From Escherichia coli (GTDB lineage Bacteria; Pseudomonadota; Gammaproteobacteria; Enterobacterales; Enterobacteriaceae), in the NCBI RefSeq assembly GCF_003334305.1, contig NZ_QOWS01000008.1: a stretch of DNA of 64,000 nt. The stretch is one strand, 5' to 3'. The position numbers were made by a program, and so were the translations under genes. Shown here one piece after another: positions 16,893 through 60,410 of the stretch (the stretch's first letter is position 1; the number at the start of each line of letters is the position of its first letter). The notes under the pieces are model-generated. The model was given only the letters and a program-made list of their open reading frames with translations, searched no databases and was not told the origin of the DNA.

Positions 16893-17010
16893 GATTTCGT
16901 CCTTTTTAAGGTGGTTATTTACACCTTAGCGCAAAGCGGACGTGGTTCCTACTGGAGTGCGCATAACGAACACAAGCACTCCCGTGGATAAATTGAGAAC
17001 GAAAGATCAA

Positions 17011-17103
17011 AAAAAAAGCCAGCACCCGGCTGGCTAAGTAATACTGGAAGCAATGTGAGCAATGTCGTGCTTTCAGGTTCTCCGCGAGGGTCTTCCTGAT
17101 CGC
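17011..17103 (-). ncRNA. ryhB: RyhB iron-starvation small RNA
   Basis: Reverse complement of 17103..17011 reads GCGATCAGGAAGACCCTCGCGGAGAACCTGAAAGCACGACATTGCTCACATTGCTTCCAGTATTACTTAGCCAGCCGGGTGCTGGCTTTTTTTT, the RyhB sequence with its terminator hairpin and U-tract; located between yhhX and yhhY as in K-12. Confidence 0.93.
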
Positions 17104-36336: not shown

Positions 36337-37395
36337 TTATTCAGGCGTAAAGTGGCGTAAATGTTGTACCGTGGCAAGCCACGCTGCCACCCAGCCAATC
36401 ATCGAGCATACCAGCAGCAATAGCAGGCATTCATCGAACGATAAGCCATTGATATCAAACTTCGTTCCGAAAACCTGTGCCACTTCTGCAACCGCCGATG
36501 ACAAACGCAGTACCAGAATTTCTGACAAAATTAATGACAGCAATGCGCCAGAAAATCCCAGCAGTGCGCCACCATACAGGAACGGGCGAAGGATGAAACC
36601 ATCCGTCGCACCAATCAGTTTCTGCACGTTGATGGAGTCACGGCGAGCAAAGATGCTCAGACGTACGCTGTTGCCGATGACGAGGAACACTGCCGCCACC
36701 ATCAACACGCCGATCATCGCCGAAACGCGCCCGACCAGCCCGGTCAACGCCGCCAGACGGGCAAACCAGCTGTCATCCATCCGCACTTCGTCAATGCCGT
36801 TAATCTGCGTGATACGATCACGCAGCGTATTGAGTGATTCCGTCCCCTGAAAATCGAGTTTCGGGATCACCACCGCCACTGCCGGAAGCGGGTTTTCTTC
36901 CAGCATATCCAGCGCACCACCAAAACCAGACCAGTTACGGAACTCGCCCAGTGCGTCTTCACGAGAAAGATAGTTCACTTTCTCCACGCCTTGCTCGGCC
37001 TGCAACTGTGCCACCACGCCCGCAGCGGCGTCATCGTCCAGCGTTTTTTGCAAGTAAACAGTGATTTGCGGTGACGGATAATACTGCGTCGCCGCCTGAT
37101 TAACGTTTTTGTACACCATATAACAGACGCTGGGCAGCGTCAGGGAGATGGCGATAACCATCACCGTTAAAAACGTGGCGAACGGTTTGCTTTTCAGATC
37201 CTGCAATGCGCCGTGGAAGGCATAGCGCACCTGTTCGTTGAAAACGTTGGTTTTACGATTTACCGGTTTTGGCGAGGATTTCGCGCGTTTCGGGGCGTTA
37301 CGACCGCCGTCGCCAGAGCCGCCGACCGATTTACGGAAGCGATCAAGACGCCCGCCAAACTGCCGAATATGATTGATTGCATCGCGCTTATTCAT
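36337..37395 (-). CDS. ftsX: cell division ABC-transporter-like permease
   Basis: Recognised protein starts [26 protein letters not shown] at ATG 37395 (352 aa); overlaps ftsE 3' end by 8 nt. Confidence 0.94.
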
Positions 37396-38056: not shown

Positions 38057-38058
38057 TG

Positions 38059-39552: not shown

Positions 39553-39701
39553 TTGCGACTACACTCCTCGCTGTTGCTTCATGGCACAGCGTTAACGCTA
39601 TGTACATAGCAGCTAAAAAAATGATGAAATAGTCTATCACTTAACTTAATTCACATCACCGCCTGCAAGTATGTGTTATCTGGCGGATTGAGCAATTTAT
39701 C

Positions 39702-40298
39702 ATGAAAAAACCGAATCATTCCGGCAGCGGCCAAATCCGCATTATTGGCGGGCAGTGGCGAGGCCGTAAACTCCCGGTTCCTGATAGCCCAGGTCTGCGC
39801 CCCACCACCGACCGCGTACGCGAAACGTTGTTTAACTGGCTGGCTCCGGTCATTGTTGACGCCCAATGTCTGGATTGCTTCGCCGGGAGCGGCGCGCTGG
39901 GGCTGGAAGCGTTATCGCGCTACGCTGCGGGGGCCACGTTGATTGAGATGGATCGCGCAGTTTCTCAGCAGTTAATTAAGAATCTGGCGACACTAAAAGC
40001 AGGCAATGCACGCGTGGTGAACAGCAACGCAATGTCATTCCTGGCGCAAAAAGGCACACCGCATAATATCGTGTTTGTCGATCCACCGTTCCGCCGTGGC
40101 TTGTTAGAAGAGACGATAAATTTACTGGAAGATAACGGCTGGCTGGCTGACGAAGCCCTGATTTATGTCGAAAGCGAAGTCGAAAACGGTCTGCCCACTG
40201 TTCCGGCAAACTGGTCATTACATCGGGAAAAAGTGGCGGGTCAGGTGGCTTATCGGCTGTATCAACGCGAAGCACAAGGAGAAAGTGATGCTGATTAA
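39702..40298 (+). CDS. rsmD: 16S rRNA (guanine966-N2)-methyltransferase
   Basis: 198-aa ORF MKKPNHSGSGQIRIIGGQWRGRKLPVPDSPGLRPTTDRVRETLFNWL; DPPF motif. Confidence 0.94.
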   Translation: MKKPNHSGSGQIRIIGGQWRGRKLPVPDSPGLRPTTDRVRETLFNWLAPVIVDAQCLDCFAGSGALGLEALSRYAAGATLIEMDRAVSQQLIKNLATLKAGNARVVNSNAMSFLAQKGTPHNIVFVDPPFRRGLLEETINLLEDNGWLADEALIYVESEVENGLPTVPANWSLHREKVAGQVAYRLYQREAQGESDAD

Positions 40299-40557
40299 TA
40301 TTGGTCGTTTGTTAATGCTCTGCGTTTGGGGATTTTTAATCCTCAATCTGGTGCATCCCTTCCCGCGCCCGCTGAATATTTTCGTTAACGTGGCGCTGAT
40401 TTTTACCGTGCTGATGCATGGTATGCAACTGGCGCTATTGAAATCCACTTTACCGAAAGATGGCCCGCAGATGACCACCGCCGAAAAGGTGCGGATTTTC
40501 CTTTTCGGCGTGTTTGAACTGCTGGTCTGGCAGAAGAAATTTAAAGTTAAAAAATAA
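40288..40557 (+). CDS. yhhL: small inner membrane protein (DUF1145)
   Basis: 89-aa hydrophobic ORF MLINIGRLLMLCVWGFLILNLVHPF starting at ATG 40288, overlapping the last 11 nt of rsmD in another frame. Confidence 0.8.
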   Translation: MLINIGRLLMLCVWGFLILNLVHPFPRPLNIFVNVALIFTVLMHGMQLALLKSTLPKDGPQMTTAEKVRIFLFGVFELLVWQKKFKVKK

Positions 40558-40559
40558 CC

Positions 40560-40919
40560 TTATTGTTCGCCTACAAAGCTGACAAAGCGCGTTCCTTTAT
40601 AGCTCAGCGTACCTTTATCGCCCACTGTCAGGGCGTGGTACTGCTGGGCGTCGAGGCGAAACGTCTGCTCCATTCCTCCGCTTTGCGGTTTGAAGCTTGC
40701 CTCATAGCGCATACTGGTGCCTGCCGGAGTCACTTCCTGCTGGCGCGAACGGCGATCGTTAATCGGTTTTTCCCGCTTGTTGCTCACCACCACCAGCTTT
40801 TGCTGGAGCGGAGCCATATCATTATCAGCTTTTTCCCGTCGCTGTTGCATAAAACGAAACGATGCGGCGACGACAATTAAGCCAATGATAACAATAAAGA
40901 AAAGAGGTGGTTTGCTCAT
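40560..40919 (-). CDS. yhhM: membrane-anchored protein (DUF2500)
   Basis: 119-aa ORF MSKPPLFFIVIIGLIVVAASFRFMQQRREKADN. Confidence 0.88.
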   Translation of the reverse strand: MSKPPLFFIVIIGLIVVAASFRFMQQRREKADNDMAPLQQKLVVVSNKREKPINDRRSRQQEVTPAGTSMRYEASFKPQSGGMEQTFRLDAQQYHALTVGDKGTLSYKGTRFVSFVGEQ

Positions 40920-55121: not shown

Positions 55122-56249
55122 TTACGCCATTGTCCCAATCGTCTTCCTGAATCGCAGCAGCGCGATGGTGAAAAACGCGCCGCCAATTGCCATCAGCGTC
55201 AGGAACTGCGGCCAGACGATTTCGAATCCGGCACCCCGGTAGAGAATGGCCTGCGCGAGGCTAACAAAGTGTGTCGTCGGCATGGTCAGCATAATGTCCT
55301 GCACCATCTGCGGCATACTTTCGCGCGGCGTGGATCCACCGGAAAGCATTTGCAGCGGCAGCAGCACCAGAATCACCAGCAGCCCCAGTTGCGGCATTGA
55401 ACGCGCTATCGTCCCCATAAAAATGCCGATTGACGTGGTGGCAAACAGACTGAGCGCCACGCCCAGCATAAACAGCGGGATCGAGCCTTCAATCGGTACA
55501 CCCAGCACGCCTTTCACCATCAGCACCAGTGATAATCCCGACACCACCAGCACCACCAGCCCCATCGACCAGACCTTTGCCATCATGATCTCAAACGGCG
55601 TTATCGGCATCACCAACAAGTGTTCCACCGTGCCGTGTTCACGCTCGCGGATCAGCGCCGATCCGGTCAATACAATCGCCAGCATGGTAATGTTGTTGAT
55701 GATTGCCATCACCCCGCCAAACCACGCGGGATCAAGGTTCGGGTTAAAGCGCATCCGGGTTTCCAGCGATACCAACGGTTCGCTGTTATCACGGTAGCGC
55801 GCGACAAAGCTGTTCACTTCACCGTTGATAATATTCTGGATATACCCATTGCCGGTAAATGCCTGGCTCATGCGCGTGGCATCGACGTTCACCTGAATAT
55901 CCGGCTGGCGTCCGGCGAGGACATCACGCTGAAAATTAGGCGGAATATTTATCGCAAAGGTATAACGCCCGGCGTCCAGTCCGGCATCCATCTCATCGGC
56001 GGTGATCATCTCCGGTGGCAAAAACCACGGGCGATAGAAGCTGTTAACGATCCGGTTCGATAACTGCGATTGATCCATATCGGCAATGGCGATCGGCGCG
56101 AGGTTCAACGATCCTGGCGTAACGGTCGCTGACGAATACACCGACACCGTAAACGAGAAGACAATCAGCGTCAGCATCGCTTTATCACCGAGCAGACTGC
56201 GCAACTCTTTGATACCCAGATTAAAAATATTGCGTAAATGGCGCATCAT
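55122..56249 (-). CDS. yhhJ: ABC-2 family transporter permease
   Basis: Membrane [34 protein letters not shown]; start taken at ATG 56249 overlapping rbbA stop (ATGA); the adjacent ATG 56246 is an alternative; ORF track extends to 56330. Confidence 0.9.
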
Positions 56250-58981
56250 CCCTCCTGTTTTTTCAGCAGCAGGATACTTAAGCCCATCACCAGCGGGATG
56301 GCTATCAGCAACGGGATAAAAAGTTGCCACAAATCAGTCAGATCCAGCGCCTTCGAGAACGTCCCGCGGGCGATAGTCAGAAAATGACTGGTCGGGTAAA
56401 CCTCGCCGATCCAACGTCCAGGCCCTTCCAGCGAAGCTACCGGATCGATCATCCCGGAAAACTGTGTCGCCGGGATCAACGTGATAATCGCCGTTCCGAA
56501 AATGGCGGCAATCTGGCTTTTCATAAAGGTGGAGATCAGCAGCCCCATTCCGGTGGCAATGATGATATACAGCAGCGCCGCCAGGGTGAGCGTCAGGAAA
56601 CTGCCTTTATGCGGTACGCCAAACACAAACACCGACAGGCCGCAGAGCAGGAAAAAGTTCAGCATCCCCAGCGCGATGTATGGCAACTGTTTACCAAGCA
56701 AAAATTCACTACGCGTGGTGGGGGTCACGTAAAGGTTGATAATCGACCCAAGCTCTTTTTCCCGCACCACGCTAAGGGCGCTTAGCATTGACGGGATCAT
56801 CATCAGCAGAAGCGGGATCACCGCCGGAACAATCGCTGGCAGGCTTTTTACGTCCGGGTTATAGCGATAGCGCGTCTCAATATTCATCAGCCCGCTTTGG
56901 CTGGCGGGTGTGGATTGTCGGCTCGCCACATCCTGTAGCCAGCTCTGGTGCATGGCCTGCACGTAACCTTTTACCGTTTCGGCACGGCTCGGCATCGCTC
57001 CGTCGATCCAGACGCCGAGTTCCACAGGCGTACCACGCGCGATATCGCGCCCGAAATTGGGAGGGATCTCAATTGCCACCGTTATATCGCCCGCACGCAT
57101 CCGACGATCAAGCTCGTCATAACTGGTGAGCGGCGGCTGTTCGATAAAGTAACGGGAACCGGAGAGATTGAGCGTCCACGCCTGGCTACTGACGGTCTGG
57201 TCGCGGTCGAGCACCGCAAAGCGCAGGTTTTCCACATCCATACTGATGCCGTAACCCATTATCAGCATCAGGATCACTGTTCCCATCAGCGCCAGCGTCG
57301 AACGTACCGGATCGCGTCGCAGTTCCAGTGCTTCGCGGCGGCTGTAGCTAAACAGACGGCGCAGGCTAAATCCCTGACGCGGCGCGTGGGTGGTGTCGTG
57401 TATCACGGGCGGCGCTTCGGCTTCGTTGCTCTGTCCTGCCGCTTCCTGCAAATAGGCGATAAATGCCTCTTCCAGACTGGCGGCTCCGCGTTTCTCAACC
57501 AGTTCCTGCGGTGTACCGCTGGCGAGCACTTTTCCGGCGTGCATCAGTGAGATGCGGTCGCAACGTTCCGCTTCGTTCATAAAGTGGGTGGAGATAAAAA
57601 TGGTTACTTTGTCCTGGCGCGAGAGATCGACCATCAACTGCCAGAACATATCCCTCGCCACCGGATCGACGCCAGAAGTAGGTTCATCGAGGATTAACAT
57701 CTCCGGGCGATGAATCACCGCCACCGCCAGCGAAAGCCGCTGGCGAATGCCGAGCGGCAATGACTCCGGCAGAACATCTTCAACGTCGTTGAGCTTAAAA
57801 CGCTCGCTCATTTCAGCCACTCGCGCGGGAATTTCCGCTTCCGGGATGTGAAACAAACGGGCATGTAACTCAAGGTTTTGCCGCACGGTGAGTTCGTTAT
57901 AGAGCGAAAACGCCTGCGACATATAGCCCACCCGACGGCGGGTATCGATATCTTTTGGATCAACCGGTTGCCCAAACAGCCACGCCTCACCTTCGCTGGC
58001 GGGCAGCAGTCCGGTGAGCATTTTCATGGTGGTGGATTTACCGCAGCCGTTCGATCCAAGAAAACCAAAAATCTCCCCGCGTGGAATGCGGAAATTGACG
58101 TGATCAACGGCAACGAAGGAACCAAAACGCATGGTCAGATCGCGCGCTTCGATGGCAATCTCTGCATTTTCAGGTTGATACGGTGGGATCACTACCGCCT
58201 GATGCGCCTGGCGTTGCGCTTGCGGTAACAGATTTATAAACGCCTCTTCCAGCGTGGCGCTTTGCGTTTGCTGCCGCAGCTCTTCGGCGCTGCCAGTTGC
58301 CAGCACTTCTCCGGCATTCATCGCTACCAGCCAGTCGAAGCGTTCGGCCTCTTCCATATAGGCGGTGGCGACCAGCACGCTCATATTGCTCTGCCGCTGG
58401 CGAATACTGTCGATCAGATCCCAGAACTGGGCGCGGGAGAGCGGGTCAACCCCCGTTGTTGGCTCATCAAGGATCAACAGTTCCGGGTCGTGGATTAACG
58501 CGCAGCACAGCCCCAGTTTTTGCTTCATCCCGCCGGAGAGTTTACCTGCCGGACGATCGCGAAACGGTGCTAACCCGGTGCTGGTCAGCAGCTCATTAAT
58601 TCGGACTTCCCGCTCCGCTTTATCGTGACCGAACAAGCGAGCGAAAAAATCGACATTTTCATACACCGATAAGGTGTGGTAGAGATTTTTGCCCAGCCCC
58701 TGCGGCATCCAGGCGATGCGCGGGCAGACGTCGCGGCGATGCTTCGGGTCGCGCATATCGCCGCCCAGCACCATCACATTGCCCTGTTCAATGACGCGGG
58801 CACCGGAAATCAACGACAACAAGCTCGACTTCCCGACGCCGTCCGGGCCAATCAGCCCGACCATGCAACGGGCCGGAATATCGAGTGTGATATTGTTCAG
58901 CGCAACGGTTTTTCCATAATGCTGGCTCACGCCCGCCAGTTGCGCGACAGGCGGGACGGGAACCAGTTCCAGATGCGTCAT
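56246..58981 (-). CDS. rbbA: ribosome-associated ATPase; fused tandem ABC ATPase plus ABC-2 permease
   Basis: 911-aa ORF with two Walker A motifs ([18 protein letters not shown]) and a C-terminal multi-TM domain. Confidence 0.94.
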
Positions 58982-60045
58982 TGCGGCAACCTCACCACGA
59001 GGTCGTCAGGCCACGGAAGTTCTTCATTCACCCGCACCCACGCTACGCCCGGTAAACCGGTTTTGACATATTCCAGATGCTGCTGGAGTAATTCCGGTGG
59101 GATACGCGCTTTGACGCGGAACATCAGTTTCAGCCGTTCATCGCTGGTTTCGACGGTTTTTGGCGTGAACTGGGCGACACTGGCGACAAAACTGATGGTT
59201 GCAGGAATACGCAGATCTGGCGCGGCATCGAGGATCAGCCGGGCTTCACCGCCCAGTTTCAGCGTGCCCGCCTGTTCGGTTGGCAGGAAGAAAGTCATAT
59301 AGACGTCGCTGAGATCGACCATATTCAGCACCCGACCGCCTGCCGCCAGCACTTCGCCTGGCTCGGCAACCCGATACTGCACGCGTCCGTCACGCGGGGC
59401 TTTCAGTTCGCTGTCATCGATATCTGCGGCAATGCGCCGTTCAGTGGCTTGTGCGGCTTCGACGCGAGTTTGCGCCTGAATGATATTGGTGCGTGCCGCT
59501 TCTATAGCGGCTTTAGAAGCCGAAACCTGAGCTTTTGCCGATTCCAGCGCAGCTCGGGCGCTCTCAGCGGCGGCGCGGTCGTCATCCAACTGTTGCGCAG
59601 AAATAGCCCCACGATGGGCGAGCGAGCGGGAACGGGTATGACGTTTGGCTACGGAGTCCAGTTCAGCTTGCCGTTGATTAACCAGCGACTGAGCGGCGCG
59701 AGTTTCACTTTGGCGTTGCTCCAGCAAAGCCTGCGCGGCAGCAACGGCGCTTTGTGCTTCTTTGATTTGCGCGATGGCTTCCAGTCGCTGTTCCTGCAAC
59801 ACGCGAGTATCCATCTTCGCCAGCACTTCACCTTCTCGAACAAACTGGCCTTCTTTCACCAGAATGGTGTCAATACGCCCGGCAATTTTGCTGGCGATAT
59901 CCACTTCCGTCGCTTCAATGCGCCCATTGCTGACAGCAAAGCCTTCCGGCACACCTGCCGGGCGCAACAGCCACCACGCCACGATAGCCGCCACCGCCAG
60001 TAACCCGACAACCCACCACGCCAGATGGCGCTTACTCTTATCCAT
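58978..60045 (-). CDS. yhiI: HlyD-family membrane fusion protein
   Basis: 355-aa ORF with N-terminal TM anchor and long Ala/Gln-rich coiled-coil segments; 4-nt overlap with rbbA. Confidence 0.92.
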
Positions 60046-60410
60046 AATCGACCCGCCATAATCCCTGTAAGCAAACGACGCGTGTTACAACTGCCGCCGA
60101 ACGACGTTCAGCGGATTCTTCCATCCGGGATAAGAAGGAAACGGCAAATACGACCAGCGCGCAGAGCATTGAGCGCCAACGGGGAAGGCTTAGTGAAAAC
60201 GGGTAGTAATGTTGTCATCATCAGCATTCCTGGCCGTAAATGAAACACGCATACTCATAAGTGTGATCTATAAAACTGGCTGACAAAACGGTATCCATCC
60301 TGTTGGATAGCGTTTCACGCCTGTTCAGTTGCAGGAACAGAGCATTCCTTTTTACGTTTTATCAACAGTCTCAACCAGATAGTAACATTAATATTCATGT
60401 TGTCTATGGT

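Follow-up and report, generated by a model that had tools for sequence, protein, structure and literature searches.

It is probable that rsmD and yhhL of Escherichia coli constitute a two-gene operon in which yhhL initiates translation from its own Shine-Dalgarno (SD) sequence, coupling to rsmD is optional, and the 11-nt overlap between the two genes is a by-product. The overlap as such is already known, being both annotated and published, and is an ordinary E. coli operon junction; Sergiev et al. (2012) noted it and flagged the association for experimental study. The rsmD (b3465) and yhhL (b3466) genes of E. coli K-12 represent the same locus, with the same products of 198 and 89 aa and the same 11-nt overlap, and no difference from the pair described here was found.

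Anatomy of the rsmD-yhhL junction

The junction is surrounded by the ftsYEX / rsmD-yhhL / yhhM / yhhN / zntA region of E. coli and was analysed within a window, the whole 64-kb stretch of DNA under study. Its features are listed below.

39650-39679, + strand: candidate sigma-70 promoter of the rsmD-yhhL operon, TTCACA, an 18-nt spacer and TGTTAT (published hexamers, located by reading the sequence)
39702-40298, + strand: rsmD (yhhF), encoding the 198-aa 16S rRNA m2G966 methyltransferase, from the ORF list; stop codon TAA at 40296-40298
40266-40295, + strand: RsmD C-terminal tail R189-D198 (REAQGESDAD), which holds the yhhL ribosome-binding site and first codons
40276-40281, + strand: yhhL SD, AAGGAG, 6 nt 5' of the ATG and within rsmD codons Q192-G193-E194
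40288-40557, + strand: yhhL (270 nt), encoding an 89-aa DUF1145 protein of predicted inner-membrane type; stop codon TAA at 40555-40557
40288-40298, + strand: the 11-nt overlap, in which yhhL Met1-Leu2-Ile3 and the AA of Asn4 coincide with the D196-A197-D198 end of rsmD and its stop
40296-40298, + strand: rsmD stop TAA, its T being the last base of yhhL codon Ile3 (ATT) and its AA the start of codon Asn4 (AAT)

Both products were assigned to their families with high scores. RsmD matched Pfam PF03602 across residues 12-188 (E=1e-63) and the NCBIfam equivalogs NF008157 (401 bits) and TIGR00095 (264 bits), and was 100% identical over residues 1-198 to the crystal structure of 'methylase yhhF' (PDB 2FPO). 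YhhL matched Pfam PF06611 (DUF1145; E=1.6e-26, model positions 1-58 of 58) and the NCBIfam equivalog NF008158 (172.9 bits against a cut-off of 118, positions 1-89 of 89). Both are genuine genes. The name and the 89-aa length that the initial annotation had given to yhhL are correct, and its placement of the yhhL start 11 nt before the end of rsmD, in the +1 frame, agrees with the sequence, the ORF list and RefSeq alike.

The two genes form a co-directional overlapping pair, on the same strand and in different frames, with the yhhL start 5' of the rsmD stop. The rsmD frame ends as ...CAA GGA GAA AGT GAT GCT GAT TAA, and the ATG at 40288-40290 opens MLINIGRLLML... in the +1 frame. RefSeq annotates both coding sequences at identical coordinates, the 11-nt overlap included; this annotation was transferred from E. 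coli NCCP15648 (NZ_CP009050.1) and used near the locus only, the window being collinear with that genome only at ~28-56 kb. The remaining parts of the window, 1-28000 and 56000-64000, were out of register with NZ_CP009050.1, which points to insertions or deletions particular to the strain on either side. The 1.1-kb region was found in 5,426 of 5,426 complete E. coli genomes, many of them 100% identical to the window across rsmD-yhhL. Of the E. coli junctions sampled, the one that diverged most, at 92.9% identity over 70 nt, still kept the 11-nt overlap and encoded an identical YhhL protein.

The RsmD tail lies outside the conserved fold of the enzyme, as the Pfam model stops at residue 188 and PDB homologues align only to residues 189-191. 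Since the last codons encode a tail beyond the methyltransferase domain, double coding would be free of cost to RsmD. The yhhL SD pairs with the anti-SD at -8.5 kcal/mol and is therefore a near-consensus SD at a proper distance. For rsmD, no well-placed SD was present in the region 39680-39704, where the best anti-SD duplex reached -4.8 kcal/mol and lay 14 nt from the AUG. Given this difference between a near-consensus SD and the lack of a well-placed one, ribosomes may translate yhhL more efficiently than rsmD, which precedes it in the operon.

Regarding transcription, the promoter table of Shimada et al. 2014 (PMC3946193) assigns to an rsmD-yhhL operon the sigma-70 promoter TTCACA-18-TGTTAT, which lies in the ftsY-rsmD spacer. 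A consensus promoter scan of the sequence did not report the TTCACA/TGTTAT pair at 39650-39679, and on the + strand scanning turned up neither a promoter-like nor a terminator-like site at the junction or close to it. Downstream, just 2 nt separate the yhhL stop TAA (40555-40557, +) from the stop of the convergent yhhM (40560-40562, -), and a terminator-like site was not found. The transcripts of yhhL and yhhM must therefore overlap, and ExcludonFinder (PMC12288877) has the yhhL-yhhM pair as an excludon candidate. This arrangement is not family-wide, as the gene 3' of yhhL differs in distant homologues. On the other side, ftsE and ftsX overlap by 8 nt (37388-37395, -), a canonical -8 class and a local contrast to the -11 of rsmD/yhhL, and 2 nt lie between ftsY and ftsE (38057-38058). 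Elsewhere in the window, the RyhB small RNA was located at 17010-17074 (-) as a full-length match to Rfam RF00057 (83 bits), the only Rfam match at the gathering threshold within the 64 kb.

Conservation of the gene pair and variation of the overlap

One genome per species was scanned with a 9-sequence alignment as the query, which yielded 313 YhhL relatives. The best 80 loci of these were kept and, with a second E. coli locus, gave 81 loci that are essentially Enterobacteriaceae plus Chimaeribacter. At each junction, the rsmD frame was walked to its first stop and the conserved yhhL ATG was taken as the start; the loci are phylogenetically related, and the counts are not counts of independent events. 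The gene rsmD was directly upstream of yhhL in all 81 loci, with the following junctions.

11-nt overlap, 54/81 loci: the E. coli geometry
17-nt overlap, 9/81 loci: the Kosakonia/Enterobacter/Leclercia group, with the yhhL start two codons earlier (MP-LLIN) and the SD shifted along with it
7-nt overlap, 6/81 loci: TGA within ATGCTGA, with a different relative frame
1-nt overlap, 2/81 loci
Abutting genes, 1/81 loci
Spacer of 1, 10 or 11 nt, 9/81 loci: in 8 of the 9, the rsmD stop is the TAA of TAAGGAG or TAAGGAA, fused to the SD

Lineages differ in overlap length but have kept the pairing of the two genes along with the SD and the ATG. Conservation of the overlap across Enterobacteriaceae, which the initial annotation had put forward as a check, thus came out divided: the pair and the start signals of yhhL were kept, and the junction itself ranged between 17 nt of overlap and 11 nt of spacer. 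The yhhL SD was AAGGAG, AGGAG or GGAG in 76 of the 81 loci, and the best-scoring motif stood 6 nt from the ATG in 65. The ATG occupied the aligned position in 69 loci and was found two codons upstream in the other 12. Within the 11-nt class, the third-codon positions of rsmD inside the SD carried 1.20 and 1.56 bits versus an upstream wobble mean of 0.70, and the wobble positions of yhhL just 3' of the overlap carried 0.2-0.55 bits, as a real coding frame predicts.

The end of RsmD varies accordingly in length, with 4 to 19 residues after the YRL[YF] motif across species. A recurrent QGE in this tail is AAGGAG in the rsmD frame, and a recurrent DAD or DVD is ATG-CTG/TTG-ATT-AA; as these are rsmD-frame readings of the yhhL signals, the sequence of the RsmD tail is dictated by the yhhL start. 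In E. coli and most Enterobacteriaceae, the rsmD frame would remain open until its first in-frame stop, the TAA formed by the conserved Ile3-Asn4 codons of yhhL (ATT AAY), and the overlap would exist because no stop is supplied before these codons. Asn4 of YhhL was invariant in the closer-family alignment A2. At the loci L064, where Ile3 is encoded by ATC, and L061, where Asn4 is changed to His, the TAA is lost and rsmD terminates upstream.

Seven distant homologues (29-55% identity), three of them named (Vibrio, Shewanella and Celerinatantimonas) and four on metagenome contigs, each lay directly 3' of a PF03602 gene, at spacings of -11, +9, +3, -1, +3, +17 and +75 nt. The synteny was thus strict, a DUF1145 gene being found directly 3' of rsmD in 81/81 enterobacterial and 7/7 distant loci. 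A divergent ftsY was present upstream of rsmD in several sampled loci. The contig CACSKA010000004.1 (L063), labelled 'Chryseobacterium sp. 18061', carries an rsmD-yhhL pair of the enterobacterial type with 83% RsmD and 75% YhhL identity to E. coli, and is probably a mislabelled or contaminated assembly.

These observations match the stop-loss/read-through model of overlap origin discussed in Huber et al. 2023, in that the variable RsmD tail of 4-19 residues follows the yhhL signals, short spacers in Vibrio, Shewanella and Celerinatantimonas stand against -11 in most Enterobacteriaceae, and some lineages, such as Citrobacter sp. R56 and Buttiauxella, seem to have regained an upstream stop (TAAGGAG), the ancestral state being inferred.

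YhhL itself had 337 homologues, with 88 representatives at 50% identity, and has been kept across Gammaproteobacteria under purifying selection, codon positions 1 and 2 being fixed while the wobble position varies. Family members are ~85-100 aa long with hydrophobic helices, and residues W14, N20, H44, F73 and G74 were nearly invariant in an alignment of 33 diverse members (A1). AlphaFold2 predicted three helices (pLDDT 94.5) that span residues 2-22, 29-54 and 64-86, the last of them kinked at G74, and the conserved polar residues N20 and H44 are located in the predicted helices. A Foldseek search with this model found nothing in the PDB at E below 1, so the fold offers no functional lead, and none of the papers searched mentions DUF1145. 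A predicted protein of 3,349 aa in the representative library (P0146) contains 8 stretches that match YhhL at ~24% identity (E=1.1e-16) and could be a giant protein of repeated DUF1145-like membrane modules, or an artefact.

Two other starts of yhhL were considered and rejected. Neither a longer, 130-aa ORF from the ATG at 40165 nor a start at the GTG of 40285 is conserved, positions -3 to -1 carrying 0.05-0.92 bits, and both are excluded by in-frame stops further upstream in Buttiauxella, Cedecea and Pluralibacter. In 8 species, the yhhL frame has a stop 6-8 codons upstream of the ATG with no start codon between.

Expression values for yhhL were not found in the supplements of TetRP (PMC4909307), Mori 2021 (PMC8144880), an acid-stress Ribo-seq study (PMC10746267), PMC9624429 or INRI-seq (PMC9825163), the sole yhhL match in the last being in its antisense off-target table. 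Together with the unsuccessful DUF1145 literature search, this would fit a yhhL that is not expressed or starts elsewhere, with the overlap as an annotation artefact. Such an artefact is very unlikely given the purifying selection on YhhL across Gammaproteobacteria, the confident AlphaFold2 model, the conserved ATG and SD, and the upstream in-frame stops, present in some species, that rule out longer forms. Furthermore, yhhL was among the genes under selection in a Salmonella transposon screen (PMC7644838). Conservation, the confidently predicted three-helix structure and the Salmonella screen argue for expression of yhhL.

Routes of initiation at the yhhL start

We infer that YhhL is produced chiefly through de novo, SD-directed initiation, with re-initiation as a minor route. 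A bicistronic rsmD-yhhL mRNA would be transcribed from the promoter in the ftsY-rsmD spacer, and yhhL would be translated from the ATG at 40288 by means of the strong and well-spaced AAGGAG at 40276-40281, both start signals being encoded in the last 10 codons of rsmD, in its non-conserved tail. A ribosome terminating at 40296-40298 would cover the yhhL start region, so that de novo binding and termination would not be simultaneous, and it may sometimes re-initiate, assisted by the SD, at the AUG 8 nt back. Coupling would not be required for yhhL expression.

The initial annotation had taken the overlap to imply coupled translation of the two genes. The gene names, the frame and the 11-nt distance on which this claim was built stood up, and PMC3946193 lists the two genes as one operon, but an overlap alone does not imply coupling; moreover, yhhL has its own SD at -8.5 kcal/mol, its start is not buried, the distance of -11 falls outside the range of -8 to +10, and the geometry is not conserved. 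Some translational coupling between rsmD and yhhL is plausible.

A stronger form of coupling would have yhhL translated mainly by termination-reinitiation, the ribosome ending RsmD at the TAA 40296-40298 and sliding 8 nt back to the AUG at 40288, so that the outputs of the two genes are tied. The proximity of stop and start, 8 nt apart, and an SD that could hold the post-termination ribosome speak for this route, as does the stop-start distance, which lay between -17 and +17 nt in 80/81 enterobacterial loci and in 6/7 distant homologues; tight spacing is also expected under selection for some coupling. A 2025 review (PMC12548453) describes bidirectional scanning to the nearest start and, for other systems, coupling where the distance is -10, -38 or -50 nt. 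In addition, the poor SD of rsmD would bring few ribosomes to the junction, which would suit a low-abundance partner.

The distances, however, point the other way. Huber et al. 2023 (PMC10666635) gave -8 to +10 nt as the range predictive of termination-reinitiation, and the E. coli value of -11 is outside it; their Table S2 lists b3465 rsmD / b3466 yhhL with a distance of -11 and the score 'CMPLX not'. Among the 81 loci, 19 were counted within this range, among them those with a 7-nt overlap (6), a 1-nt overlap (2), abutting genes (1), a 1-nt spacer (1) and a 10-nt spacer (4). According to the 2025 review, which cites an E. coli reporter study, coupling declines steadily between -4 and -25 nt, and re-initiation at -11 is thus plausible but would be weaker than at -4 or -1. 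Furthermore, a gene that initiates independently requires just such a strong, conserved and accessible SD, and in one distant lineage the two genes have stayed paired across a 75-nt spacer. Termination-reinitiation is accordingly judged unlikely as the main route, and independent initiation from the yhhL SD is preferred.

Coupling might also operate through RNA unfolding, with the yhhL ribosome-binding site held closed by a hairpin that it forms with rsmD coding sequence, and freed only by ribosomes translating rsmD. The minimum free energy (MFE) folds do weakly pair part of the GGAG with downstream bases. A stable structure sequestering the SD and AUG of yhhL was looked for by folding 101 and 181 nt, and none was significant: the folds were not more stable than shuffled sequences (z=+1.37 for 101 nt and z=+0.18 for 181 nt), and the MFE structures had ensemble frequencies of 0.0036 and 0.0003, respectively. 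The mean unpaired probability from -15 to +5 of yhhL was 0.45, above the 0.39 of the surrounding 120 nt. A hairpin-controlled start is therefore very unlikely.

A further alternative is that a programmed +1 frameshift late in rsmD yields a membrane-anchored RsmD-YhhL fusion. The yhhL frame is indeed +1 to rsmD and has no stop in the 41 codons before the ATG in E. coli (median 42 over the 81 loci), and an SD-like sequence 5' of the stop codon is reminiscent of prfB. In the prfB frameshift, the SD-like stimulator lies ~3 nt before the stop and is combined with a CUU-U-type shift site. The SD at the junction ends 14 nt before the rsmD stop instead, and no CUU-U-type shift site or slippery codon was present in the sequence at the rsmD end. 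The relative frame differs in the 6 species with a 7-nt overlap, rsmD stops before the yhhL ATG in 9 species, and the yhhL frame is closed 6-8 codons upstream in 8. One database protein (P0140) reads as an RsmD-YhhL fusion, but its frame switch occurs far upstream of the junction, on a metagenome contig, and looks like an assembly or sequencing frameshift. A fusion made by frameshifting is very unlikely, and separate translation of yhhL from its own start signals is retained as the preferred reading.

Relation to known gene pairs and biological meaning

Canonical short overlaps (ATGA, -4; TGATG/TAATG, -1; NTGNNTGA, -8) have been linked to termination-reinitiation. The rsmD/yhhL pair resembles them in that the genes are on the same strand and are listed as one operon, the downstream start lies within the upstream 3' end, and the downstream SD is part of the upstream coding sequence. 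It differs in that the stop and start codons of an 11-nt overlap have no common bases, and in that the 11-nt class is not among the enriched spacings, which for overlaps are -4, -1 and -8, experiments suggesting less efficient coupling (PMC12548453, PMC10666635). Canonical -1 or 0 geometry does occur in some relatives of the pair (L065, L075, L076 and L086). A second comparison is offered by the rsmD-coaD pair of many other bacteria, in which rsmD is likewise the upstream member of a tight and conserved co-directional pair, with a median spacing near -4 to +1 for COG0742@COG0669 (Huber 2023, PMC10666635, Table S4/S5). Unlike in that pair, the partner of rsmD here is a DUF1145 membrane protein and not phosphopantetheine adenylyltransferase.

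The strict rsmD-DUF1145 synteny is the only lead to the role of YhhL, and it was already flagged in 2012. YhhL might be a dedicated membrane partner of RsmD, either a tether or a regulator linking m2G966 methylation of the 30S subunit to the inner membrane, although we consider this rather improbable. If it were so, the tight junction would set the stoichiometry of the two proteins or co-localise their synthesis, next to ftsY, the divergent gene for the SRP receptor.

Genome annotation is left unchanged by these results, since the overlap is real, correctly annotated and already in the literature. The junction shows how overlaps arise and persist, with the ribosome-binding site and first codons of a downstream gene written into the dispensable tail of the upstream protein. 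The rsmD stop is fixed by two conserved yhhL codons, and the length of the overlap drifts by lineage while the gene pair stays together.
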